DNA from: Somniosus microcephalus
Taxonomy: Eukaryota
NCBI GenBank assembly: GCA_052327205.1
Contig: CM126202.1
Location: forward strand, 376,464,001 to 376,528,000
DNA length: 64,000 bases
Direction of reading: 5' to 3'
Of this stretch, positions 11,020 to 55,004 are shown piece after piece; the stretch's first letter is position 1, and each line of letters begins with the position of its first letter. The translations under genes were made by a program, and so were the position numbers. Below the pieces are notes generated by a model. The model was not told the DNA's origin, ran no database searches, and worked only from the letters and a program-made list of their open reading frames with translations.

Positions 11020-14000
11020 TGTGATAAATCCATGTAGGGAAACAAGGAACTCGAAGAGGCGAGATATTAGAATTAGTCCGTGTACTTTATTAAACAGCTG
11101 CGTAACAAACATACAGGCCTGCATCCTCTCATTCCACCTCCGCTGACCTTAACCAGTAGCAGCACTAGCTACAGCACCACCTGGTGGATAACCTTAATCA
11201 TAACATCCCAGATTACTATATTCCTCCCCCCTTAGGATTTCAGTATGAATTTCTTAACAAACAACCATTCCTAAGGGTCACATAAGAAGTCTCCATTCAC
11301 TATGTTCAATACTTGATGAATCTAACAGGTCAGTACTAATCTCTCTGGTGGCTTGCGAGGCCTTTGTGAACGTCTAACAGTAAAGTCCCTGCTTGTTTGT
11401 GGTGAAGCCACCAGCTGCTCCTGAACAGTGCACAGAGTATCTGACTCGGCAACGATGGTTCCCTCTTGACGAATGGGTTCCTGTGGAATTGTCTCTGTCC
11501 ATGGTGGTGGCACCACAGATGCACTTGGATAACTGGGGGCAAACCTGTCCTCAGCCATTGCATCTGGAACCTCAATTTCAATTTCCTCTTGTCTGGTAAG
11601 TATCTGATCTACATGTCTGCGTACTACCCTACCATCTCCCAACATGATCTTGTATGATACTGGACCTGTCATTGAGTCTATGAAGCCAGGAATCCACTTT
11701 GGTCCATAAATGAAATTCCTGGTAAGGACCGCATCTCCTTCTCCAAAACTTCGGCTCTTTGTTCTTTTGTCATGGTTCTCTTTTTGTTTGTTTTGTCTGT
11801 TTTCCATTTTCCTTTTTAGGCCTGGGTGGACAAGGTCAAGAGTGGAGTGTAGTCTATGATCTAATAACATCTCAGCAGGAGAGACTCCTGTGGTGGATTG
11901 AGGTGTTATTCTGTAGCTGAACAGAACCCGTGACACTTTGGCTGCTAAACTCCCTTCTGCACTTTTTATTCATCATCTCTTTAAATGTTTGTACGGCTCT
12001 CTCCGCAAGTCCATTTGAGGACGGATGATATGGAGCCGAGGCCACCTGCACTATGCCATTGTTTCTCATGAACTCTTTTGTCTCTGTACTCACAAAACAA
12101 GTGGCATTGTCACTTACCACGATCTCCGGTAGCCCTTGATTACTGAAGCTCTGACGCAGGCAGTCTATAGTAGTAGTGGAGGAAGCAGAATTAACAGGAT
12201 AAACATCCATCCATTTGGAATGTGCATCAGTGATTATGAGGAACATCTTCCCCATGAATAGACCCGTATAATCTAAGTGCAATCTTCTCCATGGTTTATC
12301 CGGCCACTCCCAGGGGTGGAGAGGAGCCGCTGCTGGTGCCTTCCTGTGTACCTGACAAGTGCTGCATGTCTTGACTAGATTTTCTATCTCCTCATCTAGC
12401 TTTGGCCACCACAAGTAACTCCTAGCCAAAGCTTTCATACGCAACACCCCAGGATGACACTGATGTAGTTGTTGTAGGATAGACTGTGGTGCTGGCTGTG
12501 GAATAATCACTCGTGCTCCCCACAGCGCGCAACCATCCTGCACACTCAGCTCTGTTTTCCTGACACTGTAGGGTGTGAAGTCAGTCCCTTCCGGATGCTG
12601 TGGCCATCCCCTCACCACATATTCTCGAACTCTAGACGGTACTGGATCTTTACCTGTCCATGTTCTTACTTGCTCTGCAGTCACAAGTGCTGTGTCAGTG
12701 TCCTCCAACATCAAAACTCTGTCCTCTGGAGCTGCACGGATAGGTGTGCCTGGCAGTGGAAGACGGCTCAAGGCATTTGCGTTCCCATGGTCCTTGCCCG
12801 CCTTGTAGACAATGACATACTCATATGCCCTCAATGTCACTGCCCACCTCTGGATCCGGGGTGACACCATCTGTGGAACTGCTTTCATTTCATTGAAAAG
12901 AGAGAGAAGAGGTTTATGATTGGTGCATATGGTGAACTTCCTGCCATATATATACTTGTGTAACCTCTGTAACCCAAACATTACTGCTAACCCCTCTTTG
13001 TCTAACTGGGAATAGTTTTTTTCTGCTGGTGTTAGGGTTCAGGACATAAACCCTATTGGTCTTTCTGTTCCACCTTTCATGCAATGTGAAAGAACTGCCC
13101 CCATCCCGTAAGGTGAAGCATCACAAGAGAGAATGATGTCTTCCTCTTCATTGTAGTGAACCAGCACATCCGATGACAGCATCAGTTTCTTGGACTGTTC
13201 AAATGAAACCCTCTGCTCCTCTCCCCACTGCCACTGTGTCTCCTTGTGCAGTAGTTTGTGAAGAGATGCTAACACTGTTGACAGGTTTGGTAAAAACCTG
13301 TTACAATAGTTCAGCAGTCCCAGTTAAGCTTTTAACTCAGCCACATTGGTAGGAGCAGGGGCGTCCTGCAGTGCTTGTACCTTCTCCTTGATTGGATGGA
13401 GCCTGGTGGCATCCACTCTGTGTCCCAGGAACACTGCCTCATTCCCAAGAAAGTGCACTTACTCCTCTTGAGCCGGAACCCTGCCCTCTCCAATCTCTGT
13501 AGTACCTCTCTCAGAGTGCTCAGATGCTCCTGGTTGGTTCTTCCCGTCACCAGAATGTCATCCAGATAGATGGAAACATGTGGAATCCCTTGCAGTACAC
13601 CTTCGATTGTCCTCTGGAAGATAGCTGGACTAGATGAGACACCAAACGGTAAGCGGTTATATGTAAACAAGCCCTTGTGTGTATTTATGGTAACATACTT
13701 CTTTGATTCATCATCCAGTGTAATCTGCAAGTATGCATGACTCATATCCAACTTTGTGAATTTCTTTCCTCCAGCCAGGTTTGCAAAGAGATCCTGTGTT
13801 TTGGAAATAGGATACTGCTCTAGTTTGGACACCCGATTGACTGTCAATTTATAATCTACACAGAGTCTTCCTGAATTGTCCGGTTTTAAAACAGGTACTA
13901 TGGGAGCTGCCCATTCTGAACATTTCACTGGCTCCAGTATGTTCTCTCTCAATAGATGGTCAAGCTCACCCTCTACCTTTGGTTTCATGGCCTAAGGCAC

Positions 14001-15658
14001 AGGTCGTTGTTTAAAAAACCTTGGCGGTGCCTCCTTTTCTACATAAATCTTAGCTGGGGGGCCATTAAATGTGCCAAGTTCCTCCTTGAACACATTCTCA
14101 TGTTCACTCAACACTTCTTGCAAAGTCAACTGTTTGCCCTCATCTATTTGATTTACTGCTCCCCAGTCTAATTTAAGTTCTTTTATCCAGCCCCGACCTA
14201 ACAGGTTTGGTCCGGTACCCGATACTGTAACTACAGGTAGCTGTTCCACTGTGTCCCTGTGTTGCACAGTTACATTAGCTGCACGTAATGTCACTACTCG
14301 TTCAGCTGTATATGTTTTAAGATGCAGAGAGCAAGACATTAACTCTGGAACTTTTGCACGGTTCCACAATTTTGAGTATTCTGCCCTGTTCATTATGGTT
14401 ACACCGCACCCTGTATCAACTTCAAAGTTGACCTCAGAGTCATTTACTGTCAGTTGCAAGGTGATAGGAGCCAATTTTGGAATGTTCTCTAACATGCTAT
14501 ACATTATGAACATGTCCTCTTCTTCCTCAGCTTCCCCGCTGATGTGGTGTGTGCCATGTTTTTTCACTTCTCTTCCTTGGTTTTGCTTTCCTCCCCCTTT
14601 TGGTTTGGATTCCTCCACAGGTGATTTTGCCCTGCATGCTCGTTTTATGTGTCCTTGTTTCCCACACTTGTGGCACTTTTCCTCCAGAAACCGGCATTCA
14701 CTTGCCAGGTGATCGTCCTTGCATCTATAACATGCCTTCACATGCTCACGTTGTGGTTTCTGATGCATGTTTAACTTGTGCACAATAACCTGACCTGCAA
14801 CTTGCTTAGCATTAGCCCTGTCTGAACGCTGTATTTCTTTTACATCTCGGTTCGCTGTCTCTATGGCTTGAGCAAGTTCCAATGCTTTTTCATAAGTAAG
14901 TCCAGTCTCGGAAAATAATCTACGCTGCATTCGGTCATCCATTATTCTGCAAACTAGCCTATCTCTCAGCATTTCCTTCAGGTTGTTCCCATAATTGCAA
15001 TCTTGTGCTAATTTACGCAACACCGCTACATAGTCCATTACACTCTCCTCCTCTTTTCTGTTCCTTGAATTAAACTTGAACCGCTGTACAATCTCACTAG
15101 GCTTAGGGTTAAAATGTTCTTTTAGCAAGGCCACTAATTCAACAATTGATTTGTCTCCAGGCTTTTCAGGACTGAGCAGATTCTTCATCAAACTGTAGGT
15201 TTGGCTTCCCACTGAACTAAGCAGAATGGCTTTCCTTTTTCTGGCATCATTTATTTCATTTGCTTCGAAGAAATAACCCAACACTTCACAGTATTCCTCC
15301 CAGGTTTGTGCTTGAATATCAAAAGCAGAGACCGTACCTATCGTGGCAGCCATGCTCTCGTCCAATTGGTAGCTAACTTTGGCTCGTGAGTTTGTTTTTT
15401 TAAAAGTCCCGGCAGACTTCTCTTCTTTATTCAGTGCCCTTTTACCTCATCGCCAAATGTGATAAATCCATGTAGGGAAACAAGGAACTCGAAGAGGCGA
15501 GATATTAGAATTAGTCCGTGTACTTTTTTAAACAACTGCGTAACAAACATACAGGTCTGCATCCTCTCATTCCACCTCCGCTGACATTAACCAGTAGCAT
15601 CACTAGCTACAGCACCACCTGGTGGATAACCTTAATCATAACATCCCAGATTACTATA
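11020..15658 (-). mobile_element. Gypsy LTR retrotransposon A (Mag/K02A2.6-like), full length, decayed
   Basis: 201-bp LTRs at 11020-11220 and 15458-15658 differ at about 5 positions. 5-bp TSD GGATG. PBS TGGCGATGAGG (15445-15455, tRNA-Ser(GCU)-like). PPT at 11221-11236. Confidence 0.95.
11322..15353 (-). pseudogene. gag-pol of Gypsy A (stops and frameshifts)
   Basis: Two zinc knuckles, protease VDTGC, RT YLDD, RNaseH CDASPYG, integrase HHCC and DDE (HLDY, SDNA, GLAER), split across at least 5 ORFs. Confidence 0.92.
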
Positions 15659-26169: not shown

Positions 26170-27092
26170 AAAGGTAGAAATAGCAGAGACATTGGTCACA
26201 ATCTTTCAATCCTCATTGGATACAGGTGTAGTGCCGGAGGACTGGAGGGTTGCTAATGCTATACCACTATTCAAGAAAAGGGAGAGGGATAAACCAGGAA
26301 ACTACAGTCCAGTCAGCCTAACATTGGTGGTGGGGAAGTTATTTTAAACCATTATCAGGGAAAAAATACACTTTCATTTGGAAAGGCATGGGTTAATCAC
26401 AGAGAGCCAGCTTCGATTTGTTAAAGGTAAATCATGTTTGACTAACTTGATTGAATTCTTTGATGAGGTAACACTGAAGGTTGATCAAGATAATGCAGTA
26501 AATGTAGTATATCTGGACTTTCAGAAGGCATTCAACAAACTGTCACACAGGAGGCTTATTAAGAAGATGGAAGCCCAAGGAATTGAGGTGAAAGTGGCGG
26601 TATTGATACAAAATTGCCTCAGTGACAGGAAGCAATGGGTGGTGGTGGATGGTAGTTTTTCAGACTGGGAGGTGGTTTGCAGTGATGTTCCCCAAGAGTC
26701 AGTTTTGGGTCCATTGCTCTTTGCAATTTTTCTAAACCACCTAGACTCAGGTGTAGGGAGCAGCATTATAAAGTTTGTGTTAAGTCTGTGTGTTCTAGTT
26801 GTAATTACTAACACAGACTACAAGATTAAAGTTCAACAGGTCTTTACTGGTTGGAGGTCAGGACTATACTAAATACAATATTACTACACAGTGCTTATAT
26901 ACCGGTGGTCACCACCGGTATTATGTATACAGCAGCCAGAGAAAGTAATACATCTCTTAAGGTGGAACAGGCTTAAGTTCTCTTAAGGTGGAACAGGTTA
27001 CATACACCACAATCCTCCCTTTTTAGCTTAACAGTCATATCCCCATTTAACATAACATAATAATAACATATATAACTTCAGGTATAAACAGT

Positions 27093-30000
27093 TCAAAGGT
27101 TCAGTCTCTCAGGAGGCCTTCTGATTCGGTTTGGATAACGCCTTTCAGTGGTCTCTGATTCCTGTTGCTGAGGTGACTCCTCTAGTTGGTCTCCCATGCA
27201 TTGGGTGTTATCATCATCAGGTACATTCCCTGCCGAGGTAGATGCTTCAGGTTCATTAACGTCTTCCACAGTTGTCTCTGTCGCAACCATGGGTTCGACC
27301 CTTGCTCTCGATTCTACCAGTTGATCTGCATGACGCCTTATCACATTGTTACCAATATCTACTGTGTACATCAGAGGTCCTTGTCTGGCCCGAATTGTTC
27401 CGGACTGCCATTTTTCGTTTCCATAGCCCCTTGCCAACACTGGTTGTCCTACGTCGAAACTTCGAGTGGTCTTGTTATTAATATGCCGAAACTGTTTGTT
27501 TTCCACTTCCCTCCGCACATTTGGTTTTAACAAGTCCAACCTGGACCGCAACCTCCTGTTGTAAATCATCATGGCAGGACTTTGGTTAGACACTGCATGA
27601 GCGGCGTTTCGATATGCCATTAGGAAATTGTCCACCTTGTGCTGTAGCGGAATCTGATCATCGTTCATGGCCTTTATTGCCTTTTTGAATGTTTGGACAA
27701 ATCTCTCGGCCAACCCGTTTGTCGCCGGATGATATGGGGCAGAGGTATAATGTTTCACCCCATTCTTCTTTAAGAACTTTTGGAATTCTTCCGACATGAA
27801 CTGTGGTCCATTGTCCGAACAGATCTGTTCTGGCAATCCGTTCCTTGCGAATACTGTTCTTAACACCGCAATTGTCTTTTCTGAAGTAGTGGTATTCATC
27901 TTGATCACTTCTGGCCATTTGGAATGTGCGTCCACCGCAATTAGGAACATGGAGTCCATGAATGGACCAGCAAAGTCAATATGTACGCGTTGCCATGGGG
28001 CTGAAGGCCATTCCCATGGGTGTAGTGGTGCGATCGGAGGTGCATTTTGCACTTTTTGGCACCCAGCGCAGCTTTTCGTCAACTCCTCTATCTGTTGGTC
28101 AATACCCGGCCACCATACATAAGCCCTAGCAAGACTTTTCATCTTAACTCCCCCCAGATGACCTTCATGCAGTTCTTTTAGAACTCTTTCCCTTAACTTG
28201 GGAGGAATAATCACTCTTGTCCCGTACATCAAAGTACCATGGCAGACGGACAGCTGGTCTCGCCTTGCCGAGAATGCCCGTAACAGAGGATCACCACATG
28301 TTGGCCATCATTTCACTGTCACCTCGTAGACTCTGGACAGTGTCGGGTCGTTCCTGGTTTCTCTTTCAATACTTGCATTGGTGACTGGTAAACACTTGAT
28401 GATGGTCGAATGAAATAACTCAACAGGGTCAACTTTCGTCGTTTCTTCTCCTTCAGGTAGTGGCAGGCGCGACAGCCCATCAGCATTGCCATGCTGCTTC
28501 GTACCTTTGAATTCTATTTGATATTGATGTGCCCCTAGGAAAAGGGACCATCTCTGGAGACGCTGTGCTGTCATCACTGAAACACCCTTCTTAGGGTTAA
28601 AAATGGATACCAATGGCTGATGGTCTGTCAGAAGTGTGAATTTTTGGCCCTGCAGGTAATGATTAAACTTCTTCACTCCCCATACAAGGCTGAGAGCCTC
28701 CCTATCGATCTGCGCATAGTTGCGCTCAGCAGAGGTCAATGATCTGGATGCAAACGCGACTGGCCTTTCCATGCCATTTGGCAACTTGTGGAGAGTACTG
28801 CCCCAATACCATATGGAGAAGCATCACAAGCCAACCGAATAGGCAGTGTCGGGTTGAAGTGAGCCAACACTTCCTCTGAGGTGATCAATTCTTTGCTTTT
28901 GCGAAATGCCTTCTTACAGTTTTCGCTCCATTCCCATGGTACCCCCTTCTGTAAAAGAGCGTTCAGCGGGTGCAGTACCGTGGATAGATTTGGTAGAAAT
29001 TTATGGTAATAGTTAATCAATCCTAGAAATGACCTCAACTGAGAGACATTATCCGGAGTGGGAGCCTTTACAACTGCCTCTATCTTGTCAGGAGACTTAT
29101 GAAGCCCCTCCCAGTCAATGACATGACCACAGTACAAGATCCACTTCTGGAAGAACTCACATTTCTGCTGATTAACTCTAAGTCCATACTCTTTCAGTCT
29201 GTTGAGCACCAGTTCCAAGTTTGCGAGGTGTTCTTCATCACCATCACCTGTAATCAGAATATCGTCCAGGTAACATTGTGTGCATGGAATTCCCTGTAAT
29301 ACCTGCTCCATGGCCCTCTGTCAAATTGCTGGAGCCGATGCCACTCCAAAAACCAGCCTATTGTACCAGTACAAACCTTGATGCGTGTTGATCGTGAGGT
29401 ATTGGCGTGACTCTTCTTCAACCTCCATCTGCAAGTACGCCTGCGCCATGTCTATCTTGGTGAAGTGTTTCCCGCCAGACAACGAAGCAAAAACATCCTC
29501 AATCCGCGGAAGCGGATACTGCACCGTGTTGTAAGGGTTTCGCAAAATTCCCCTGAAAACAAGAGAAACATTGGTCCACATCGTGGATGAAGATTTATGT
29601 GTTTTTGAATTGCCTCTGGGTCAGATCAATGTTTTGAAGCATGTTCAGAGCCATGAAAGACTGCTGGACTAGACTACAACAGAGTCAAGGAAATTTGGGG
29701 AAGTATTCACACACATTGAGAAGGAACATCTTTTAAGGCTTGTGCTTTGGAGCCCGGTCAAACACAGAGGTTTACAGCTTGTAATGTGTTTGTGTGAAAG
29801 ACCTGTCAATCAAACCAGGGAGGTCAGGAGTTGCCTACCTGACCCGAGGTTGATTATGGCTGGCTATGATTCAACAGCCAATCACAGTCCTTTTTTGTGT
29901 ACTGGTCAGACGGAGCGGCACCAGAATGAAAGACCTGTCAATCAAACCAGGGAGGTCAGGAGTTATCTACTTGACCCGAGGTCGATTATGGCTGGCTATG

Positions 30001-32042
30001 TTTAAACAAGCAATTCAGCAGCCAATCACAGTCCTTTTGTTTGTGTACTGGAACTTTAGGCGGGAATTTTTCCAGACAGAGCGGCAGCAGCAACAAGTAT
30101 AAAAGATAGCTACTGAGAAGCTATCAGGCCTCTTCTCTTTTTACTTCGCTGGATCAGGTGAGCAGAGTGTTTTGACTCCTAAACAAGACAACCTAGCAAG
30201 GACTTTGGGGTGGTGATTTAAGGGAATTGCTAAGATTGTTTAAATAACATTGTAGCCATTGTATCCCTCGCTTTTGCCGTGTGTACCCCCTTGATATATA
30301 CTTTTGTTGCATTTACTATGTTCGTGTGGTATAGTTTATATTTGATTATGGTTCTTTAGTTTAATAAATTTTGACTTTGCTCATATCCAAACAAATTGTC
30401 CGCTTTAACATCATTAATTGTAAGTCCCCCAGTCAGAACTGAAAGGTGGGGTAGCGATTCGGAACCACTGTTAAATTGGTTTACAGTGCAGCAGGCAAAA
30501 GGGCTGCTGGCCAGATATGTTACCATAAACCAGGTAATAGATGCCCCCCCCTACAGTGTGAAGCACCGGATTAACGGTGATTTTGAAATCTCCACAGATG
30601 CGAACCTTCCCTGGTTCTCCTGGCTTGTTGCTCGAAGGATGTTTCATAACGGGAACAATGGGCGTAGCCCACTCACTCCAATCTACCTTAGACAGTACAC
30701 CTGAACGTTCTAGCGCTTCCAGTTCTGCTTCTACAGTAGGTCGTATTGCATAGGGTACCGGTCTGGCTTTAAAAAATTTTGGGTGTGCTTGTTCATCAAT
30801 CTTGATGTTTGCCGTAATTCCTCTCAGTGTTCCCAGTCCCTGCTGGAACACCTCTTTAGCGTCATCCAATATTTTGGACAATCGTTTAGGTTTGACATCT
30901 GTTTCCCCGGAATCTACCGTTAGTGCCTTCAAGGAGTGCCAGTCCATATTCATTTTCCTAATCCACTCCCGTCCCAGTAGTGGTGGACCTCCTTCAGGTA
31001 GCACATATAAGTCCATTACTTGGCTTTCTTCGCCCTTGTGGACCACTTTTACCTCTATCTTTCCGATGGGGTACACACTTTGCCCCGTGTATGTTTTCAA
31101 TATAATCTCCGTATCCCGTAGGGGAATATGTTGGAATAACCTTTTGTAATCTTTCTTATTCATGACCGTCAATGCCGATCCAGTGTCCAATTCCATCTTT
31201 ACTTGGACTCCTGCTATCTGAAGGGTGACCCAAATTGTCTGGAGATCTGCATCCTTACCAACGTTGTGTACTCTTAAGCTACCCAGTTCATTACTGCTAG
31301 CGTCTGAATCTGGCTTCTGTTCGGTCGAACTGTTCTTTGTCACCTTGTGTACCTTTATGTATTTTCCTTGCGGTGACTTTTTGTTGCTGGTCTTCTTTCC
31401 TGACCGGCATACTTTAGCTATGTGGCCAAGCCTGCCACACGTTCTGCACTCTTGGTTTTTAAACCAACACTGGTTCTGATCGTGCGTTGTCTTTCCACAA
31501 CGATAACATTTTACAGTACTCAAACCCAATTTATTTGTACTGAGTTCCGGTGACCTAAGCTGCATTACTGCCGTGCCTCTCGCTGCGGCTTCGTGCGCTG
31601 CTGCCATAGTGACTGCTTTCTCAAGCGTCAGCTCATTCTCCTCGAGCAGTCGCTTTTGTGTATCTTCTTTTAATAGTCTCGTTCCAAACTGACAGTACTT
31701 TGCTAGCTTACGCAATTCCATTAAATATTCAGCATTGCTTTCATCCTTCAGCTGCCTTCTGCTGTAAAATTTAAATCGTTCCGCTAGCATCAGCGGCGTG
31801 GGGTTTAGATGATTTTTCAGGACAGTAACAATCTCCTCGAACGTCTTATCCGCCGGTTCATCTGGTGATAAAAGGTGTTTCAATTGCCCGTATGTCTTCG
31901 CACCCATTAAGTTTAATAATGTTAGTGCTTTCTCTTCATCTGGGATTTTATTTGCTTTACAATAATTTTGTATGCGTTCTACATACATGGCCCAATCTTC
32001 GATGTCGCTATCAAAGGTATTAATGTTCCCATGTTTAGGCAT
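27093..32042 (-). pseudogene. gag-pol of Gypsy B
   Basis: Gag knuckles, LDTGS, YLDD, CDASPYG and integrase DDE ending RRPPERLNL. It carries stops, a frameshift, a 12-aa gag deletion and a solo-LTR insertion in RT. Confidence 0.92.
29530..30555 (+). mobile_element. Solo LTR (1026 bp) inserted in the RT of Gypsy B
   Basis: TGTAAG...CCCTACA termini and TSD GTGT. It has a 132-bp-period internal duplication, CCAAT boxes, TATAAAA near 30098 and AATAAA at 30363. Confidence 0.9.
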
Positions 32043-32757
32043 CGTTGCAATTTAATTTATTTTTATTTTTATCCAAGATGGCGGCTTCCCGCTCTTGTCT
32101 TCATCCTCCGCCTACAAAATGGCGGTTTTCCCGCGCTTGGCGGTCTTCACCCATCCCCCGACGCTGTCTCCGCTTCACCGCGGCTCTCGCGCCTTCAGTT
32201 GCCCCAGACGCTGCGCCTTTTTAGCCCGAATGCGGCCCGGCCCTTATCACCAGCCGCGATCGATGTCCCCGCGCTCCGCCTTTCGGCCCGAATGCGGCCC
32301 GGCCCTTATCTCCGGTCGCGATCGATCTCACCGCCCTTATTCCTCCGTCTTCCCTCCCCGTCTGTACAGCCAACGCGGCCGACTTTCTGGTCGCGTCGCT
32401 GCCCGGCTTACCCACCACCGAGGTAGAATGAAGATAGCTGACAGCCGCTGATGGAGGCTTCGAGTTCAGGATGTCTTCTGCACTCTGGTTTCTCGATGTC
32501 TGCCGCGCGACGTGTCTTCCAGCAGGGTGATGAGGGTGGAAGCCTCTCTTCGACGTCCGTTCTGTGGACGAAGCCATCGTGGATATAAACTGCCGCAGGG
32601 TAAGAATCGGACTCGTCGCCACTGTTTAGTCTGTGTGTTCTAGTTGTAATTACTAACACAGACTACAAGATTAAAGTTCAACAGGTCTTTACTGGTTGGA
32701 GGTCAGGACTATACTAAATACAATATTACTACACAGTGCTTATATACCTGTGGTCAC

Positions 32758-35700
32758 TGTTAAGTCTGTGAATTATTTAGTTAATTAAGACACAGACTAA
32801 TGAGTAACAATAAAAACAGGTCTTTACTGGTTGGAGGTAGGGACTATACTGAATACAAGATTACTGCACAGTGCTTATATACCGGTGTGTTCACCCCCGG
32901 TATTACGTCTACAGCAGCCTGAGAAAGTAGTACATCTCTTAAGGTGGAACAGGCTTAAGCTCTCTTAAGGTGGAACAGGTTACATACACAACACTCCTCC
33001 CTTCTTAGCTTTATAGTCATCCCCCCATTTAACATAACGTAATAACATATATACATATATAACTTCATGTTTAACGTAACATATCACAGATTCAGTCTCT
33101 GCGGAAAACAGCTCACAGATTCAATGTCTGTGGTGTAGTCGGTTCACGTTACTCATTCAATAGTCCTTTCATGGATTTAACAGCTTGAACTTCCGAACTG
33201 ATTTGGCTCCGTTCGGAGGGACCACGTGTGTGATCTGCTAGAGGTGATAATGGTTCAGATGGGTCATCTTCTGTTTTTACTTTTCCTTTTCTGCTTCTTG
33301 GAGACTCTCTGGGCTCCATTGTCAGCTGCCACAGCTGCCAGCTGCATGCGCAGTTCCTCCTTCTCTTCCTCCTGTTTCCGTCGTAGAGCCAGCTTCTCCC
33401 GATGTTCCGTAGACTTTTGGTGCTCCTCCATGATTTCTGCACTTTGGGAGTCGAAGTTACAAGCTGGGCAGGACAGGACATCGTAATATTCGGTGTCGTC
33501 CACCAGGTCATGGTAATATTCGGTGTCGTCCTGAGCTAGACCAGTGAGAGGGTCGTCTATTTCCTCCATACCCAGCTGGACGTTAGCCAGCTCTTGTTCC
33601 AAATCCAGACATCTTTCCTGAAGAGACTTCTTCATGTGTACCTCTGCATCCAGCTTTTTCTGGGCTTTCAGCAAGTCGTTTACTAGTGACCTCATTTGTG
33701 ATTTTAATACTTCAACTTCCTTTGGAGATTGATTGATCGGACTATGCAATCCCTCTACCGGAGCAGCCGTTTCAGCGGTCTGTTGTTCTACATTGACGTG
33801 AGTCAGCGTACTTTTGGCATCCAATGGCTGCTCTGTTGCAGTCGTTTCAGTCTGTGTCGTCACATCAGCCATCTCAATGACTTTTGAGAGCTCCAAACCC
33901 TTTTCCTTTGAAGATCGCAGCTCGTGTTCAAGTTTTTCCCATTTCAGAGTCTTGTCCCTCAGCATATGAAGGAGTTGGCTGACCGTTAACTCTTCTGACA
34001 CCAGATTATGGCACGTACCTTCAGAACCTGAATCAGCTTTGATTCGTTCGGCCTCCTCGCGCAGATGGTTGGTGTGCCCCTGCTCCATTTTCTCCATCAG
34101 TTGCTTCTGTTGCCTTTCCAGATTCTCCCACTCTGTAACAAAGAACTTTTTTATTTCATTCATCTCTTGCTCAAAACGGCGAATCATTTGTTCTAATTGC
34201 TGTTGTAGTTTGAAATGGAGTTGAGTTCGAGCCCAGTGTCCCTCAAAAATGTGCATATCAGTAGACTTGACAGACTCGGAATTCTCTGTTAAACTATGTT
34301 GTTGTTGCTCAGTGGAATTCTGTGCTGAAACTTTGTCTTTTGCACATGGGTTGGTCTTACCATCATCAGTTCTAGAGTCTGGGCTGATTATCTGCACCGA
34401 GTTCTCACTCTTTATGGCTTTTAGCGAATGCCAGTCCATATTTATGTTTCTAAACCACTCCCGGCCTAGTAGTGGTGGACCTCCCTCCGGTAGCACATAT
34501 AAGTCCATTATTTGACTTCCTTCGCCCTTGTTGGCCACTGCAACCTTTATTGTCCCGATGGGGTACACTCTCTGCCCCGTGTAGGTTGTCAATATAATCT
34601 CCGTATCCTGTAGGGGAATATGTTGGAATAACCTTCTGTAATCTTTCTTATTCATGACCGACAATGCCGATCCAGTGTCCAATTCCATTTTTACTTGGAC
34701 TCCTTCTATCTGAAGAGTAACCCAAATTGTCTGGAGGTCTGCACCCTTACCAACGTTGAGTACCCTTAAGCTAGCCAGTTCAATACTGCTTAAGCCAGCC
34801 AGTTCATTACTGCTAGCATCTGAATCAGACTCCTGTTCGGCCACCTTGTGTACCTTTGCGTATTTCCCTTGCGGTGACTTCTTGTTGCTGGTCTTCTTCC
34901 CTGACCTGCATACTCTAGCTATATGTCCAAGCCTACCACATGTTCTGCATTCTTGGTTTTTAAACCAACACTGGTTCTGATCATGCGTTGTCTTTCCACA
35001 ACGATAACATTTAACAGAACTCACACCCAATTTGTGTGCACTGAGCTCCGGTGACCGTAGCTGCATTACTGCCGTGCCTCTCGCTGCGGCTTCGTGTGCT
35101 GCTGCCATAGTGACCGCCTTCTCAAGCGTCAGCTCATTCTCCTCGAGCAGTCGCTTTTGTGTATCTTGTTTAAATAAACCACACACAAATTTGTCTCGTA
35201 GTGCATCTGTCAGTCCCGTTCCAAACTGACAATATTTCGCTAATTTACGCAATTCCAGCAAATATTCAGCATTGCTTTCATTCTGTAGTTGCCTTCTGTC
35301 ATAAAATTTAAATCGTTCCGCTAGCATCAGCGGCGTGGGGTTTAGATGATCTTTCAGGACAGTAACAATCTCATCGAACGTCTTATCCGCCGGTTCATCT
35401 GGTGATAACAGGTGTTTCAATTGCCCGTATGTCTTCGCACCCATTAAATTTAATAATGTTAGTGCTTTATCTTGCTCACGAATTTTATTGGCCTTACAAT
35501 AATTTTTTACTCGTTCTACATATATGGCCCAATCCTCGATGTCACTATCAAAGGTGCCAATATTCCCGTGTTTAGGCATTGTTACAATTTTGTTGGAATT
35601 TTATGTTACACAAGATGGCGGCTTCCCGCTCTTTGTCGTCGTCCTCCGCTCCCAAGATGGCGGTTTTCCCGCGTTTGGCGGTCTTCACCCGTCCCCCGAC

Positions 35701-36305
35701 GCTGTCTGTAAGCCCGAGTGCGGCCCTTATCTTTTATGCGATCGCTGATCGCGAAGCGGCTCCCGACCGAAGCGGCTCTTGGCCCTTATCTGGAGTGCGA
35801 TCGCTGGCTTGAAACGCCACCCGCTCGAAGCGGCTCTCGCGCCCTTATCGCAGATGCGATCGATTTGAAAGCGGCCCGGCCCTTATCTGCCGATCGCTAT
35901 CGCCCTGTACCTCTGTCTTCCCCAGCCCTGTCTTCTACTCCGGTTCACAAGCTGATGGAGGCTTCAGGGTCCTAATGCCTGTCGCTTCCAGTGGGGTGGT
36001 GAGGTTTGAAACCTCTCTTCAACCGCCGTGGAATAACTGCCGCAGGGTAAGAACCTGACTCGTCGCCAGTGTTAAGTCTGTGAATTATTTAGTTAATTAA
36101 GACACAGACTAATGAGTAACAATAAAAACAGGTCTTTACTGGTTGGAGGTAGGGACTATACTGAATACAAGATTACTGCACAGTGCTTATATACCGGTGT
36201 GTTCACCCCCGGTATTACGTCTACAGCAGCCTGAGAAAGTAGTACATCTCTTAAGGTGGAACAGGCTTAAGCTCTCTTAAGGTGGAACAGGTTACATACA
36301 CAACA
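32758..36305 (-). mobile_element. Non-autonomous Gypsy-derived element C carrying a chimeric ORF
   Basis: Identical 236-bp LTRs (32758-32993, 36070-36305), TSD GTCAC, PBS TGGCGACGAG (36059-36068), PPT at 32994-33006. No RT, RNaseH or integrase core. Confidence 0.95.
33264..35579 (-). CDS. 771-aa Gag-protease fused to STK10/SLK-like, optineurin-like and DNAJC21-like segments
   Basis: Uninterrupted ORF. Residues 1-388 are collinear with Gypsy B Gag-PR. Residues 446-515 resemble the STK10/SLK PKK coiled coil, 529-673 the OPTN coiled coil, and 694-771 the DNAJC21 zinc finger plus its basic patch. Recognised from memory. Confidence 0.85.
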
Positions 36306-38420
36306 GTCACCACCGGTATTACATATACAGCAGCCAGAGAAAGTAGTACATCTCTTAAGGTGGAACAGGCTTAAGTTCTCTTAAGGTGGAACAGGTTACA
36401 TACACCACAGTTTGTAGATGAGACAAAACTTGGCAAAGTAGTAGATAGTGATGAGGATCGTTATAGGCTTTAGGATAACAGACAGGATGGTGAAATGGGC
36501 AGAAGTATGGCAGATGGAGTTCAATGCAGAGAAGTGTGAAGTGATGCACTTTGGGAGGACTAATATGGAAAGACAGTAAGACAGTATACTATAAATGGCA
36601 CAATTTTGAAAAGTGTAGATGAGCAGAGAGACCTTGGTGTCCTGATACACAAATCCGTAAAGGTGGCAGGGCAAGTTGATAAGGTGGTTAAAAAAGCATA
36701 TGGGTTACTTGGCTTTATAAATAGAGGAATAGAACTTTATAGATCACTGGTTAGGCCTCGGCTGGAGTATTGTGAAAACTCTGTGCACAACAGTCAGGAA
36801 AGATGTAAAGGCCTTAGAAAGGGTACAGAGCAGATTTATCAGGATGTTACCAGGGATGAGGGACTTCAGTTATGAAGAGAGGTTGAAAAAGTTAGGACTC
36901 TTCTCCTTGGAACAGAAAAGGTTAAGAGGTGACCTCATAGATGTTACCAAGATGATGAGAGGTTTTATAGAGTAAATAGAGAAAAGCTATTCCCTCTGGC
37001 GAGTGGTCCAATAACCAGAATTCATAGATTCAAAATCATTGGCAAAAGATCTAGAGGGGAGATGAGGAGAATTTTTTTCACTCCCAGTTGTCGGGATCTG
37101 GAACACTCTACCTGAAATGGTGGTGGAAGCTGATTCCATAAATAATTTTAAAAGGGAGCTGGACAGGTACTTGAGGATGAGGAACTTCCAGGGTTATGGA
37201 CAAAAAGCGGGAATAAGCACAACTGCTCTTTCAAAGAGCCAGCACAGGCACGATGGGTCGAATGGCCTCCTTCTGTGCTGTAAGTTTCTATGATTCTATA
37301 TGGACTGTTCAAATCAGCGAGAGTTGGTCTGGTACATTGGAAAAGATTAGTTCGACCAGTTAACTTCTGTAGTTGTTAAGGTCATAAGAAAAAAACAACT
37401 ATGTATACAGGAAAGTTATTTACAAAATTATAGTTTAGCATAAAGCAAATTTGTTTGGCTTTTACAAGGTCTGTTGTTAGTGTTGTTCTACCACGTTTCA
37501 AGGTTAGAACCCTGTGGAGGTACAGGCTAGATCCAATAGCTAAAGGCAAGTTTTCTGCTTGTTATTCTGGGCATGCTAGCAAAACTTACCTGGAAACCAC
37601 AGCAAATGAAATAGTCTCAAAGTTGTAGGGGAGTAAGACTCATTATAAGAGCAGTTTAAAATATGGAAGGCAAAATATCTAGACCAAAAAAGGCAGCGAG
37701 GCACAAAAATATAACAGCTGCTGGCCCAGGGAAACTACAATTTCCTTGGAAATGCAAAGGGTTAAATAACAAACTGCAAATGCACTGAAATAAATTGATG
37801 CAAATAAACAAGACAAATTTATGGTATATAAATAGTAATTCAAGTCTAAAGATTGATTGGGGTTTGTTGCTGTTGAGAGATCAGTAATGAAGCATAATGC
37901 ACATCCTGAGATGTCAACCACGACAGACCAGACATTCAATTTTCAAACGTCCTTAAAGAGAAACAAGGCCTGATTTTGCTCTCTAGCTGCAATCTTGGCC
38001 AAGTTCAGTAGAAGTGCACTCTGCTGGGACCAAGGCCACACCAACCGAACTTCCTCTTGGCCTGAATTAAAGTAATGCAGCTGCATGTGGGGATGCTCTA
38101 TTGGGTACAGGCAAGAAAGGAAGACAAATTGAGGCTGCTTTTTGTTAATTCAAAATGGGATGCAGTCGCGTATCTTGAAGGAGAGGGACGATTTTCCCCC
38201 TCTGGTAGGGAAACAGTGGTGAGATGCTCAGGAGAGATGCAGGCACATTTCCCCAGCAGTTGTCAAGGGAGCTTGTGGTATTTTTCCCTCGTATGTTCCA
38301 AATAAGCCGTATCACAAAAGGGGATGGGAAAAGTTGGAACAATACTGAACACTGCCTCTATTGCGAAGTGTAAGAGGCAGAGAGCATTCAGCATCAAGTC
38401 CTGAAGCAGCAAAACTATAT

Positions 38421-48890: not shown

Positions 48891-51800
48891 TGTGGTGATT
48901 ATTCTTTATGTTTAGTAAGAAGTATTGTGATTGGTTGTTTGTTTCCTGCCTTGGGATATATGTTGTAATCTCATTGGTAGTTGATGTCATGTGATTTGTG
49001 GTGGCCATCTTAAATTCAGTTCTTTCCAGCCTTTTGTTGGGACTGGGTGTTGAAGATGTGCTACAGGATTTTTAAGTTAATAAAGCCTAGATTAGAAAGG
49101 CAAATCTATTCTTTATTTCAATTTATTAACTTTATGTCAGAATGGAGCGATATCTTCAACCAGAACGATTCAATGCTGACCCTAATTCTGCAGGAGTGGA
49201 TGATAAATGGAAACACTAGTATTGTACATTTAAAAACTTTTTGGGCGTGTTGGATCAAGAGTCTCTAAATAAGCTGAATATGCTGATCAACTACATTGCT
49301 CCGGATGTGTATAAGTATATTTTGGACTGTAAAACTTACGAAGTGGCTATTTCTACATTGGAAAAGATTTTTGTTAAACCAAAGAATGAGGTATTTGCAC
49401 GTCACCTTCTATCTGCCCGTAGGCAGCAGGTGGGAGAATCTTTGGATACTTATTTACAAGCACTTCGGTGCCTTAGTGTTAACTGTAATTATAAGGCCAT
49501 GACGGCTGAAGAATATAAGGAAGAATCGGCACGGGATGCTTTTATTAATGGATTACTGTCTAGATCAATTAGTCAGCGGTTGTTAGAAAATAAGACTTTG
49601 GATCTTAAGAGTGCTTTTGAGCAAGCTTCTACATTGGATGTGGCTCAGAGAAGTTCGGATTCTTATGCTCTTTTTAATCGGCCTGTGACTGTGGTTTCGG
49701 CAGTTCCGGATGAAAAGGAATTATGTGGACTTAATAGGAGTGGTTTACTAGATTCTGAAACAGTTTCTACTTCAGCGGCTGTTGCCTCTAGGATTCAGAA
49801 GTGTTATTTTTGTGGGAACGTCCGGCACCCTCGTCTGAAGTGTCCTGCTCGGGAGGCTGTGTGTAGTAAATGCGGCAAGAGAGGTCATTACGCACGTGTG
49901 TGTAAATCATCAGGTTCAATTACCTCCTCTGTGACTATTCAGCCTTTAGATAGGGCGTTTATTGCATCAATTTCTGCTGCATTTGCTCATGGCCTAAACA
50001 AAGCTATAGTTACGGCCCAAGTTAATGGGTTGGAAGTGAAGGCCCTTATAGATACGGGCAGTACCGAGAGTTTTATAAGTCTTCAGTTTGCAAAGGAGAA
50101 GCATTTGAAAATTTTGCCTGTTTCCTATCAGGTGTGTATGGCTCAGACGACTCTCACTTCACAAGTAGCTGGTTGTTGCCTTGTGAAATTGATTCTTCTA
50201 GGTAATACGTATACTGATATATGCCTATCTGTTTTGCCTAATCTCTGTGCGGATATTTTGATTGGTCATGATGTGCTTCAGTTACACGAGTCTCTCAATC
50301 TTTCATTTGGAGGGACTAAGCCACCTTTATCTATTTGTGGATTAACCTCTTTATCCATTTCTCCATTATCACTTTTTTCCAATTTGATGCCAGATTGTAA
50401 GCCAATTGCTACCAAGTCAAGAAGGTATAGCAGTCAGGATAGAGAATTTATTAATTCTGAAGTTCAACGTCTCTTATTGGAAGGAATCATTGAACCTAGT
50501 TGTTCGCCTTGGCGGGCACAGGTAGTTGTCACGACTAACGAGAGACATAAGAAACGAATGGTGATAGACTATTCCCAAACTATTAATAGGTATACTCAAT
50601 TAGATGCGTACCCTTTGCCTAAGATTGATGAGCTTATCAATAAAGTATCTCAGTATAAGGTTTTTAGCACTATTGACCTAAAGAGTGCTTATCATCAGAT
50701 TCCTATTGTTAAGAAGGATCAACCATATACGGCCTTTGAGGCTGGTGGAAAGCTGTATCAGTTTTGCCGAATACCATTTGGTGTTACTAATGGTGTTGCT
50801 TGTTTTCAATGGGCAATGGATGCTTTTATAAGTGATAACTCTCTCTCTGACACCTTTTCATACTTAGATGACATCACGGTGTGTGGCAAATCAAGGGTGG
50901 AGCATGATTCTAATTTAGAAAGATTCCTTGAAGCTGCTGAAAAAGTTAGTTTAACTTTCAATAAAGAGAAGTGTACCTTTTCGACCACTGAGGTAAATCT
51001 ACTGGGGTATATTATCTCGGGAAACAAGATTAAACCAGACCCAGAATGTCTGCGACCATTGATTGATTTACCCTGTCCTACTAATTCTAAGGCTTTGCAA
51101 CGAGTTGTTGGACTGTTTTCTTACTATTCTAATTGGATTGCAATTTTTTCACAGAAGATCTGGCCTCTTATTCGGGTTACGACATATCCTCTATCATGGG
51201 AGGCCAGGACGTGTTTTGATAATTTTAAAAAGGATATCCTTGGAGCAGTTGTGCATTCTATTGATGAGCAGGTTCCTTTTGTGATTGAGACGGACGCTTC
51301 TGATTTTGCAATTGGGGCTACTCTGAACCAAAATGGAAGACCTGTGGCTTTTTTCTCACGTACCTTGAACAATAGTGAAAAAAGGCATTCTTCAATAGAG
51401 AAAGAGGCGTATGCAATAGTAGAAGCACTGCGTAAATGGAGACATAATTTATCTGGGTGACATTTTACGTTGGTAACTGATCAAAAGTCTGTGTCCTTTA
51501 TGTTTGATGTCAAACATTTTGGAAAGATTAAGAATGATAAAATAATGAGGTGGAGGATTGAGTTGGCATGTTACCATTTTGATATAGTTTATCGTCCGGG
51601 GAAGGATAATGTTGCTGCTGATGCGCTGTCGAGGGCTTATTGTTCTGTGATTCACGGAGATACGCTTATTAATCTTCACAATGCCTTATGCCATCCTGGG
51701 GTTACGAGGATGATACACTTCGTACGCAGTAAGAATTTGCCCTTTTCAGTTGAAGACGTCAAGCGGATGACTTCATCATGTTCTATCTGTGCTCAGTGTA

Positions 51801-53297
51801 AACCGAATTTCTTTAAGCCTCAATGAGCTCATCTTATAAAGGCTGCTTCTCCTTTTGAACATTTGAGCGTCGATTTTAAGGGGTCTCTTCCTTCAACTAC
51901 TCAAAACCGATATATATTTACTGTTGTGGATGAGTTTTCAAGGTTCCCTTTTGCTTTTCCTTGCGCAGATGTATCAGCTGCTACAGTTATCAAATGTCTG
52001 ACTCAACTTTTTGTCATCTTTGGGATGCCTGCGTATATCCATTCGGATCAGGGAAGTTCTTTTATGTCTTCCCAGTTGAAGGAATACCTTCAGAGTTGGG
52101 GAATTTCTACTAGCAGAACTACCCCGTATAATCCCCAGGGTAATGGACAGTGCGAACGATACAATGGGGTGATCTGGAAGGCAGTTATGTTGGCTTTGAC
52201 ATCCCGGAACCTTAAGAATACACAGTGGGAAATGGTACTGCCTGATGCCCTGCATTCCATTAGATCATTGCTTTCAACGGCTACTAATGTGACCCCCCAT
52301 GAAAGGCTCTTTAACTATCCGCAGAGATCTACTACGGGATATTCGGTACCTTCATGGCTTACTATGCAGGGACCTGTGCTGCTTCGACGCCATGTTAGAT
52401 TGTCAAAATATGATCCATTAGTGGAGGAGGTGGAGCTGTTGGAGGCAAATTCCCAATATGCTCATATTCGATTCCAAGATGGGAAAGAAAGTACCGTTTC
52501 AATTAAAGACTTGGCTCCTTGTGGTGGCCAGCCCTCTTCTGAGGATATTAACAATAGTCATGATTCAGGTAATGTGGATGCTGTTACAGATACTACGAAT
52601 ATTTCCAATCCGACTGCAGATAATTATACTTCTATTAGTCAGCCCTCGATAGATGTTCATGACCGTCCCAGTTTACCTCCTGATGGGATTTCTAATCCGG
52701 AAACCGTTGAAAATCGGGATATGGATAGCCTTCCGGCAGAAGATACTTCTGTGTCTCCTGGTGTGGGAGGGCAAGGAATTTCACCAAGGTTAAGAAGGTC
52801 GACACGAACAAGATATCCGGTCGACCGATTGAAAATGGACTTTTAAATTGATAGTAATGTTTTAAAATTGTTGAAATATTATATTATATTGTTTTAGTTG
52901 AGAGATATTTAATACTTATGTGCAATGTTACTATTTGTTGTTGCTCACTTAGTATTGTGTCATGTTGAATAGTTTTATTTTGTCTGTGCATAGTTTTAGT
53001 TGTAAATAATTAATTATAAATTGTAAAGGTTATTTAGGTTGGAGTATATTTTAAAAGGAGGGGTGAATGTGGTGATTATTCTTTATGTTTAGTAAGAAGT
53101 ATTGTGATTGGTTGTTTGTTTCCTGCCTTGGGATATATGTTGTAATCTCATTGGTAGTTGATGTCATGTGATTTGTGGTGGCCATCTTAAATTCAGTTCT
53201 TTCCAGCCTTTAGTTGGGACTGAGTGTTGAAGATGTGCTACAGGATTTTTAAGTTAATAAAGCCTGGATTAGAAAGGCAAATCTATTCTTTATTTCA
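48891..53297 (+). mobile_element. Gypsy LTR retrotransposon D, full length, mildly decayed
   Basis: 230-bp LTRs (48891-49120, 53068-53297) with 3 differences. PPT AAAAGGAGGGGTGAA. The TSD is imperfect (CCATT/ATATT) and there is no clear tRNA PBS. Confidence 0.92.
49142..52846 (+). pseudogene. Single-frame gag-pol of Gypsy D with three in-frame stops
   Basis: MERYLQPERF..., zinc knuckles, IDTGS, YLDD, TDASD, HHCC and DDE. Stops at about 49216, 51458 and 51824, all in one frame. Confidence 0.92.
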
Positions 53298-53380
53298 ATA
53301 TTCTAAGCATGAATACATAGTTAAATTATGGCCATATTTCCCTCTATTAGCAAAAAAAAGTTTAATTCACTTAACATCTA

Positions 53381-54779
53381 GGCCTAGAAATTGAGTTGAC
53401 GCCGCGCCAGGGCTTTAGCGCCGGAAATTTAGCGCCGGCGCTAATTCCCTTGCGCGCGCCAAAAATTCAGTAGCGCCGCGCCCAGACGGCTGCCGGCGCT
53501 ACTGGCGGGCGTGAGCGCCTCCCAATGGGCGCTGAGTGCCGTATTGCGGCGCTAATCCGGCGCTGCGGCACCCGATGCGGTGCGGCAGGCTGGGGAAGTG
53601 CAGGCCTCCTCCTTCAGTTAAGGAGGAGCTGCCTGCACCCGCCCGCTGTCCGTTCAAATATTGAAAAAATGAGCCCGGCACCACGGACAAGTGCCGGGCT
53701 TGCAGGCCAGACGCATCTGTTCCACGGGGGGGGGGGTGGAGGAGTCCGGGGAGGGAGGTGCGGGCAGGCAGCCGACGGGAAAGCGGCCGGCCGCAGCGCG
53801 ACCTTAATGCGCCGGCGCAAACTCGGGGAAGACTCTGTTGCCAGAGTCTTAGGCCTAGAAATTGAGTGCCCTTAGCGCCGATTTTGCGGCGCTAGAGGGC
53901 CTAGCGCTGCATTTGGCGCCGGCGCCGAAATTGCCTGGGGCCCTTACGCCGCGGTAGACCGGTAGCGCTGCGCCGGCACCGATGACGTCATCGGTGTGCG
54001 CAGCGTCCCGGTTGCCATGACGACGGGCCCCAGCGCCGAAATTCAGTTGCGGCCGCCTCGCCCGTGGCAGCCGCAACTAAGACTCTGGCAACAGAGTCTT
54101 CCCCGAGTTTGCGCCGGCGCATTAAGGTCGCGCTGCGGCCGGCCGCTTTCCTGTCGGCTGCCTGCCCGCACCTCCCTCCCCGGACTCCTCCACCCCCCCC
54201 CCCCCGCGGAACAGATGCGTCTGGCCTGCAAGCCCGGCACTTGTCCGAGGTGCCGGGCTCATTTTTTCAATATTTGAACGGACAGCGGGCGGGTGCAGGC
54301 AGCTCCTCCTTAACTGAAGGAGGAGGCCTGCACTTCCCCAGCCTGCCGCACCGCATCGGGTGCCGCAGCGCCGGATTAGCGCCGCAATACGGCACTCAGC
54401 GCCCATTGGGAGGCGCTCACGCCCGCCAGTAGCGCCGGCAGCCGTCTGGGCGCGGCGCTACTGAATTTTTGGCGCGCGCAAGGGAATTAGCGCCGGCGCT
54501 AAATTTCCGGCGCTAAAGCCCTGGCGCGGCGTCAACTCAATTTCTAGGCCTTAGTTGCGGCTGCCACGGGCGAGGCGGCCGCAACTGAATTTCGGCGCTG
54601 GGGCCCGTCGTCATGGCAACCGGGACGCTGCGCACACCGATGACGTCATCGGTGCCGGCGCAGCGCTACCGGTCTACCGCGGCGTAAGGGCCCCAGGCAA
54701 TTTCGGCGCCGGCGCCAAATGCAGCGCTAGGCCCTCTAGCGCCGCAAAATCGGCGCTAAGGGCACTCAATTTCTAGGCC
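53381..54779 (+). mobile_element. Harbinger-type MITE, outer copy (53381-53851 plus 54554-54779)
   Basis: Perfect TIR GGCCTAGAAATTGAGT and TSD CTA. Confidence 0.93.
53852..54550 (-). mobile_element. Same MITE, inner inverted copy (699 bp)
   Basis: Perfect TIR and TSD TTA (53849-53851 / 54551-54553). It contains the intact version of the site it interrupts. Confidence 0.93.
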
Positions 54780-55004
54780 CTAGAATTTAACAAAGCCAAA
54801 TCAAAATGGCAGGTACCCATGACTTTGCGCAGATCATTTTCTGCAATACAATTTTGGTGGTGGGAATGGAAGCAAATGGCCTATCATGACACGTCAATAT
54901 TAATGCTTATTTCATATGTATCAAGCAGCTAAATTGCTACATAGCCAGCATAAATGGTCAATATTTCATTCATCCAGTTGTCAAAATGGGAAAACTTTTG
55001 AAAA

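Follow-up and report, generated by a model that had tools for sequence, protein, structure and literature searches.

In gag-onc transducing retroviruses, Gag is fused in frame to spliced host sequence that has replaced pol, and the virus depends on a helper. Here we describe a long terminal repeat (LTR) retrotransposon of Somniosus microcephalus located at positions 32758 to 36305 of a 64,000-nucleotide (nt) stretch, the window (contig CM126202.1 of assembly GCA_052327205.1, positions 376,464,001 to 376,528,000, forward strand). Its open reading frame (ORF) runs from Gag and protease (Gag-PR) into pieces of the host genes STK10, OPTN (optineurin), and DNAJC21, and the family to which it belongs appears to have been founded by the capture of a circular STK10 RNA.

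Related events have been reported separately. Tan et al. (2016; PMC5131818) described LTR-mediated retroposition in animals, with microsimilarity at the switches and multigene chimeras; their cases include the mouse "Super" retrocopy, with four genes, and retrocopies that often keep the orientation and reading frame of the parent gene, some few of them with low ratios of nonsynonymous to synonymous substitution (KA/KS). The same paper recounts maize Bs1, an LTR element with exonic pieces of three host genes that has transposed again, its copies having their switch points in common. Dong et al. (2016; PMC4897178) described pseudogenes derived from circular RNA (circRNA), among them 33 mouse circRFWD2 copies with LTR-enriched flanks and no poly(A). 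The wheat families RLG_Sabrina and RLG_WHAM consist of high-copy Gypsy elements that encode only GAG-protease and are mobilized by an autonomous partner, with host switches by LTR exchange (PMC9744471), and a review of gene capture in plants lists template switching (PMC13317346).

A back-spliced STK10 RNA as the probable founding cargo

A search of the 6.45-Gb genome with STK10 revealed elements that carry residues 376-704 followed directly by residues 290-389. The exons concerned are labeled E8 to E12 in this analysis, numbers that follow the human gene. In 12 of 12 top STK10 copies, here called type A, the order relative to the host locus (C8, minus strand) is E9[146-675]-E10-E11-E12-E8-E9[1-159], each exon is 97-100% identical to host STK10, and every join lies at a splice site. 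The join of E12 to E8 is a back-splice, noncolinear at exact splice sites. The sole host E12 donor in the genome follows residue 704, and the sole host E8 acceptor precedes residue 290; a first pattern for this acceptor found nothing, and a looser one gave three exact matches, two of which are point-mutated element junctions. The start of E8 itself has 893 genome matches. Host exon E10 (L073) has a GC donor (GC-AG intron) that was spliced correctly in the captured RNA.

The five exons total 1,245 nt, and because this equals 415 codons without a stop, one turn keeps the reading frame; the type A ORF starts in Gag, passes through the full circle, and ends at the stop of integrase. The points of entry and exit lie at a single host STK10 site and have 14 nt in common; the start of the Gypsy reverse transcriptase (RT) matches 10 nt of that site and the integrase tail matches it in part, the comparison being with a backbone related to that of the donor. 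Across the 29 elements compared with the five exons, STK10 pieces begin and end inside E8-E12 (flanking exons lay outside this comparison), and STK10 residues 705-977 searched against the genome returned host exons, paralogues, and one separate retrocopy, with no element-like match (upstream exons were not searched alone). These observations suggest that the founding cargo was one full turn of a back-spliced 1,245-nt STK10 RNA. Tandem duplication of host E8-E12 is not supported, as no second E12 donor or E8 acceptor is present in the assembly. An intronless retrocopy of the STK10 3' end (L055; G000:C3:354658271-354658948), 97% identical, open to its stop, and with 3' untranslated region (UTR), is separate from the Gag-fusion family.

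Structure of the window element and identity of its cargo

The sequence-only reading of the window had noted identical LTRs, a target site duplication (TSD), a primer-binding site (PBS), a polypurine tract (PPT), and an uninterrupted ORF of 771 amino acids (aa), all of which sequence comparison bore out. The two LTRs (32758-32993 and 36070-36305, 236 bp each) have TG...CA termini and zero differences, the 5-bp TSD GTCAC flanks the element at 32753-32757 and 36306-36310, the PBS abuts the interior of the 5' LTR, the PPT precedes the 3' LTR, and the single minus-strand ORF (35579..33264) is stop-free. These LTRs, PBS, PPT, and short TSD are Ty3/Gypsy hallmarks, as is the order protease, RT, RNase H, integrase seen for the parent family in the neighboring copy. 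The window element has no RT, RNase H, or integrase of its own and retains an intact and constrained Gag-PR; it reads as a semi-autonomous Ty3/Gypsy derivative, whose parts are as follows.

36306..36310, unstranded: TSD on the 5' side of the element, from sequence
36070..36305, minus: 5' LTR, 236 bp, identical to the 3' LTR; 203/232 aligned bases shared with the neighboring Gypsy LTR
36055..36069, minus: PBS, from position and sequence, identical in 10/10 siblings; putative as to cognate tRNA
34412..35579, minus: Gag and aspartyl protease, start of the ORF; Pfam matches under curated cut-offs
34234..34411, minus: remnants of STK10 E9 in two pieces with a 75-nt deletion between them, 94% and 89% identical to the host exon
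34033..34244, minus: STK10 E11 (part) and E12 (part), spliced, PKK coiled coil; 95% and 87% identical to the host exons
33559..34032, minus: middle coiled-coil piece of optineurin, from protein matches; spliced exon join at ~33612
33266..33558, minus: short STK10 E8 linker, then DNAJC21 piece; stop codon at 33264-33266
33152..33272, minus: end of STK10 E8 joined to start of E9, untranslated remnants, 86-93% identical to host exons
33007..33151, minus: remnant of the integrase C-terminal tail and 3' UTR, 78-79% identical to Gypsy backbone 3' ends
32994..33006, minus: PPT, from sequence
32758..32993, minus: 3' LTR, 236 bp, identical to the 5' LTR
32753..32757, unstranded: TSD on the 3' side of the element, from sequence

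Within Gag-PR, the zinc knuckle (aa 210-225) and the aspartyl protease (aa 287-377) match Pfam below curated cut-offs; in the cargo, the PKK coiled coil matches PF12474 (E 1e-11). The 258-nt deletion in the OPTN piece takes out an SFVEI motif present in sister subfamilies, a motif we assume to be LIR-like, and the DNAJC21 piece comprises a C2H2 zinc finger, an acidic/basic tail, and a 30-nt tandem duplication.

For the STK10 piece, the top protein match is shark STK10 (E 1e-28, 77%); SLK, considered as an alternative donor, reached only E 1e-9 and is ruled out by that weaker score and by the match to host STK10 exons. The optineurin piece matches at E 1e-32 (68% over 161 columns). From the window copy alone the protein match to DNAJC21 is weak (E 6e-4), and the identity is secure because a host DNAJC21 exon (G000:C1:4792918-4792793) is 82% identical to window 33335-33432 and 98% identical to a sister subfamily. 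Host loci were located with parts of the genes that had not been captured, whole-protein genome searches being swamped by element copies; for the DNAJC21 exon, a first pattern gave 8 element-type matches and no host exon, which an acceptor-anchored pattern then found. The first exons of DNAJC21 (G000:C1:2653208-2675274) and the captured exon (L085, C1:4792793-4792918) lie on the minus strand alike, but 2.1 Mb separate them and their order does not suit a single gene, which reflects either a scaffold order problem or a second locus. The named proteins nearest to the extension are from sharks, and a search of solved structures with the ORF extension gave zero matches.

Thus the sequence-only reading was right that STK10-, optineurin-, and DNAJC21-like pieces are joined in frame, each having significant protein or host-exon matches. 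Its picture of three joined pieces holds for the gene calls but not for STK10, which is present as permuted, deleted remnants on both sides of the OPTN and DNAJC21 pieces, reaching past the stop codon to 33152. The window copy has lost the back-splice point itself and keeps E9, E11, and E12 upstream of the later inserts and the end of E8 and start of E9 downstream; the remnants at 33152..33272 would be the second half of the STK10 circle, downstream of E12. The proposed capture of host mRNAs by template switching likewise stands at the RNA level, with microhomology at the switches (9/10 nt at that between OPTN and E8), but the founder appears to be a circularly permuted STK10 RNA and not a linear mRNA. 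The captured pieces lack the STK10 kinase, the OPTN N terminus and UBAN, and the DNAJC21 J domain.

Subfamilies and later captures

Besides the window, 28 loci were mapped, taken as top hits and not as a random sample. Twelve are of type A, with the full circle. Type D (4 loci, L067-L070) has a 417-nt deletion and OPTN residues 131-428, without DNAJC21. Type B (one locus, L034) has the 417-nt deletion of type D, a 90-nt deletion, and DNAJC21 inserted in E8, and it retains the back-splice and lacks OPTN. Type C, with both OPTN and DNAJC21 (10 loci, within L031-L042), is best read as a recombinant of B and D, because it shares the 90-nt deletion and DNAJC21 join of the one and the OPTN join of the other. 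The window type derives from C through the 75-nt and 258-nt deletions, the 30-nt duplication, and an altered tail. In a short derivative found at one locus (L038; G000:C10:209616233-209619439), the Gag N terminus is fused to the end of OPTN and the DNAJC21 piece; the protease and the 5' half of STK10 are gone and the longer form of DNAJC21 is kept.

Because one OPTN join and the two ends of the 126-nt DNAJC21 exon are free of intron sequence, these two genes appear to have been captured as spliced RNA; the 3' end of the OPTN piece is at an exon end. Intronless host sequence inside a discontinuous LTR element, the mark of an LTR-mediated retrocopy, is found at the STK10, OPTN, and DNAJC21 joins. 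The serial capture that had been proposed for this element therefore survives as captures of host RNA, but the mosaic itself was apparently built from STK10+OPTN and STK10+DNAJC21 subfamilies by recombination and deletion.

Other branches took up further genes. A five-gene subfamily, first noticed as loose ends of RNA reads in both RNA runs, is represented by a copy (L086; G000:C1:9056500-9058900) with STK10, EVI5/EVI5L-like, ankycorbin/ANKRD24-like, OPTN, and DNAJC21 pieces, the EVI5-like and ankycorbin/ANKRD24-like additions being coiled coils. A second branch (L084, L087; G000:C1:29080800-29083400; 363 junction matches) keeps the back-splice junction and has I-set immunoglobulin (Ig) domains inserted in E8, open in frame to the integrase tail. 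These domains are of the titin/obscurin/MyBP-C class, with obscurin as a tentative source gene. The Ig-branch copy also has a ~360-bp insertion in E12 and, downstream, a piece of another element's integrase region. With these EVI5-like, ankycorbin/ANKRD24-like, and Ig pieces, identified by protein likeness and not by comparison with host exons, the radiation appears to carry at least six host genes.

Copy number and transcription

All 40 scored genome matches to the cargo are 99-100% identical and lie on many contigs. Nine of the 10 siblings with both ends fetched have their own matching 5-bp TSD (L004 has none), and the LTR pairs of 10 siblings show no difference in six and a single base in four. 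These dispersed matches, with their sibling-specific TSDs and LTR pairs, exclude an assembly chimera, and the many siblings exclude a single-copy accident; the established multicopy lineage that had been suspected from this one copy is real, with thousands of matches. Nine of 10 TSDs (window and nine siblings) start with G, which suggests a target preference, and one 5-mer is used at two different loci.

A 35-mer from the E12 cargo has 8,134 genome matches at ≤2 mismatches, one of them the host exon. The first 100 exact matches on contig 1, counted by hand, comprise 46 window-type, 42 intermediate, 8 host-like, and 4 other copies. The five-gene subfamily has 2,635 matches to its own junction-side 30-mer, probably additional to the 8,134. 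The family thus numbers >8,000 copies of 3.5-4.5 kb, and probably >10,000; candidate numbers from a first look (1,657; 42,275; 84,198) are not copy numbers. The ORF is free of stops and frameshifts in 20 of 29 siblings, and the 9 disruptions are all in Gag-PR; because these siblings were picked by cargo identity, their stop-free cargo was not counted as evidence.

Transcripts were sought in two RNA runs with one species label, mapped at 95% likeness, in which reads sum over thousands of copies; both runs cover all 30 bins. Run X19 gave 9,597 reads of 16.7 million, covering all 30 bins and the whole ORF, with no splice joint listed inside the cargo. Its first mates fall mostly on the plus strand (e.g., 1,071 versus 43 at 33568-33691), which means the element sense strand if the library, whose strandedness is not recorded, is of the common stranded type. 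At five cargo sites where the window copy departs from nearly all siblings, the reads carry the family-majority base. Contigs of public runs under three species labels contain 0.46-0.68 of the sampled words. At window 34157 and 33607, reads also continue from the element into unrelated-looking sequence, which suggests further variants.

Neighboring elements and a plausible helper family

The element inserted into the 5' LTR of a neighboring Gypsy copy, now split into 32623-32757 and 36311-36409.

26778..36409, minus: decayed copy of the autonomous Gypsy family, with Gag-PR, RT, RNase H, and integrase in several broken frames, from sequence comparison

As the sequence-only reading had claimed, the N-terminal part of the 771-aa ORF is collinear with the Gag-protease of this copy, at 80% identity (326/408 aligned columns, including gaps). 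The autonomous partner family that it proposed also exists: 26 of 103 scored matches, by hand count, sit in stop-free open frames of 1321 aa, and this pol-encoding family is a plausible helper. Because the window Gag-PR is 85% identical to the neighboring Gypsy in the backbone comparison and 78% identical to the older backbone, the window branch appears to have switched backbones, its cassette moving onto the Gag-PR and LTRs of the presently intact helper family. Gag-PR, earlier described as retained, is therefore present but swapped for another backbone in this branch. The ORF listing of the window includes no env-sized frame in the element or the neighboring Gypsy.

Elsewhere in the window, two further young LTR elements (11020-15658 and 48891-53306) contain Gag, protease, RT, and integrase remnants, with LTR pairs 97-98% alike. 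Nested long inverted repeats at 53380-54793 (arms of 357, 244, and 127 nt, 98-99% complementary) represent either a local fold-back duplication or an assembly artifact. At 59893-63483, several long overlapping frames on both strands, of which the one scanned had no Pfam match, probably reflect GC-rich low-complexity sequence.

Selection on the cargo

Selection was assessed with a spectrum-matched permutation, in which substitutions were redistributed among positions that share base and CpG context; the resulting omega* replaced raw NG86 omega values because transitions inflate synonymous divergence (dS). Between the window and host STK10, 17 of 36 changes are silent against 10.0 expected (omega* 0.43, p=0.007). 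The window OPTN piece compared with five C and D copies gave omega* values of 0.45-0.60 (p=0.006-0.07; all five include the window branch, so they are not independent). Pooled, STK10 and OPTN gave 0.47 (p=0.001), Gag-PR gave 0.30, and a neutral control of private sibling changes in Gag-PR gave 0.96. Host-side evolution does not explain the STK10 value, because type A is ~1% and the window ~10% from host STK10. Length changes upstream of the DNAJC21 tail between compared copies (-90, +6, -417, -75, -258, +30, and -3) are all multiples of three, and the capture joins are in frame. In the DNAJC21 zinc-finger piece (window 33335-33470), replacement exceeds silent change, not significantly, with several Lys-to-Glu changes.

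The STK10 and OPTN cargo thus shows the signature of moderate purifying selection, and the earlier suggestion of a possibly selected chimera holds for these pieces but not for DNAJC21. The pattern fits selection to keep the frame open almost as far as the 3' LTR, together with mild constraint on the helical stretch, and gives no indication of host-like cargo function.

A model and its alternatives

In the account that we favor, with a probability of roughly 0.7, a circle-founded, semi-autonomous Gypsy element keeps its cargo for frame maintenance and as a harmless soluble tail. During reverse transcription in the particle, short microhomologies would have let the polymerase jump to a co-packaged STK10 circular RNA, go round it once through the back-splice, and return, the single turn perhaps being set by RNase H destroying the template behind the polymerase. 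The circle would have replaced RT, RNase H, and most of integrase, with the frame kept at both ends. As the intermediates show, the vacated pol slot then tolerated deletions that kept the frame, separate captures of spliced OPTN and DNAJC21, and recombination, and other branches took up EVI5-like, ankycorbin/ANKRD24-like, and Ig-domain pieces; the cargo may receive such captures as the one part of the element that can be spared, and Glu/Lys-rich coiled-coil mRNAs may supply the in-phase microhomologies. The window branch moved its cassette to the helper Gag-PR/LTR backbone and amplified recently; the element would make its own Gag-PR-cargo polyprotein and borrow RT and integrase in trans. If an open frame is required almost up to the 3' LTR, for RNA stability or cis-packaging, and the tail must remain a soluble, noninterfering helical extension of Gag, moderate purifying selection would result without host-gene activity.

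Several observations weigh against this account. The DNAJC21 piece is unconstrained (omega* 1.2-1.8, not significant), neither private (0.75, p=0.28) nor shared (1.00, 6 changes) cargo changes among the 29 siblings show a deficit of replacements, the frame of the last ~25 codons differs between B, C, and the window, and copies were taken as top-scoring matches, a sampling that favors open frames. The STK10 circle was not seen in RNA, where element transcripts share its junction and would mask it; run X20 has about as many reads in one direction as in the other, the strandedness of the libraries is unrecorded, and the RNA may come from another species. Reasoning from nonsense-mediated decay and cis-packaging is general knowledge.

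The account and its three rivals are not fully mutually exclusive. The sampling and the neutral look of DNAJC21 and of the sibling-level changes, together with a cargo frameshift in the one five-gene copy read, would also suit a wholly neutral passenger, its open frames and low omega being artifacts of sampling. We consider this improbable: the same test returned 0.96 for the control, host-side change is ruled out by the divergence of type A and the window from the host, 37 of 39 other matches lack the frameshift, and about ten independent joins and indels are all in frame. At the other extreme, the cargo could be a useful module, a coiled-coil/zinc-finger tail that aids co-assembly with helper Gag-Pol or particle traffic, or that serves as a dominant-negative decoy for host proteins (the autophagy receptor optineurin, for example), in which case successive captures would be selected upgrades. 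Purifying selection on STK10 and OPTN would agree with this, as would the predominance of the most derived types in the counts above (46 window-type against 8 host-like; 2,635 five-gene), the mostly coiled-coil cargo (Glu, Lys, and Gln [EKQ] 31% versus 21% in Gag-PR), and the persistence of all four C2H2 ligands (both Cys, both His) in the fast-changing DNAJC21 piece. Yet cargo content is freely deleted and swapped, the presumed LIR-like motif is missing from the window type, one branch has Ig domains instead, and 0.47 is weaker constraint than that on Gag-PR; abundance may track the backbone swap, and in-phase microhomologies of Glu/Lys-rich mRNAs alone would bias captures to coiled-coil genes. 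A useful module is therefore unlikely, if less so than a neutral passenger.

The least probable alternative concerns the founder, whose permuted exons might come from a linear repeated-exon RNA, made by trans-splicing or exon repetition or from a lost tandem-duplicated allele. Such a donor gives the same donor-to-upstream-acceptor join, one microhomology site used twice could also give same-site entry and exit, the circle is not directly evidenced, and our literature search found no paper on an STK10 circle. What makes it very unlikely is the uniqueness of the E12 donor and E8 acceptor in the assembly, the confinement of element pieces to E8-E12 within the five-exon comparison, the lack of element-like matches to the STK10 3' part, and entry and exit at the same site exactly one unit apart, as a circle predicts and a linear repeat would produce only by chance. 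Beyond the favored account, one may tentatively picture the pol slot of this vertebrate lineage as a standing gene-capture cassette, circRNA-founded, loaded time and again with host coiled-coil and Ig modules in the Gag frame, and protein-selected for particle assembly or for defeating a host pathway. That is doubtful; if true, it would mean exon shuffling driven by element-level selection over >10,000 copies.

Comparison with known systems

The family would provide base-resolved evidence for a route of circRNA retrotransposition, template switching in an LTR particle, that the circRNA-pseudogene paper left open, and a fossil of a specific STK10 back-splice made in the germ line or early embryo of the shark. 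With intermediates preserved among thousands of copies, one can read off directly in what order captures, deletions, recombinations, and the backbone switch took place, a rare and well-preserved record of gene shuffling by retrotransposons in which selection on captured host protein becomes testable during transposition and not after domestication. Annotation of STK10, OPTN, DNAJC21, and EVI5 in this lineage, and measurement of their RNA levels, will also be confounded by the family.

The analogy to gag-onc retroviruses, drawn in the sequence-only reading, holds for structure but not for activity, because the pieces lack kinase, J-domain, and ubiquitin-binding parts. The shark element is a germ line retrotransposon without env, its cargo has no catalytic domains, and there is no evidence of growth-promoting function. 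The accompanying statement that no description of such a system was known went too far, since multigene LTR retrocopies (PMC5131818) and LTR-flanked circRNA pseudogenes (PMC4897178) have been published. With the former the shark family shares host RNA pieces between the halves of an LTR element; those retrocopies, as described there, are in few or single copies from linear mRNA (the main text nowhere contains "circ"), whereas the shark family has a back-spliced founder, a constrained in-frame Gag-PR, >8,000 copies, and graded subfamilies. Bs1, in the passage of PMC5131818 on it, is a plant element with one to five copies per Zea species and no circle reported. For the wheat families, the account in PMC9744471 describes no in-frame host-gene extension past the protease. 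With the circRNA pseudogenes the shark family has in common a noncolinear back-splice junction fixed in DNA; PMC4897178 treats its copies as pseudogenes and calls the mechanism "mysterious," while the shark family offers switch points placed to the base within Gypsy pol, a single exact turn, a fusion frame that is open, a far higher copy number, and later captures. Our literature search returned no report of this family or of an amplified in-frame circle-Gag fusion, and subscription journals, Repbase/Dfam, and supplements may hold cases. To what the single copy had suggested, the present analysis adds the circular origin, the scale, the recombinational assembly, and further cargo genes. Relative to the literature found, the novelty would lie in the union of LTR-mediated capture and circRNA origin in one amplified, in-frame, constrained Gag-fusion family.

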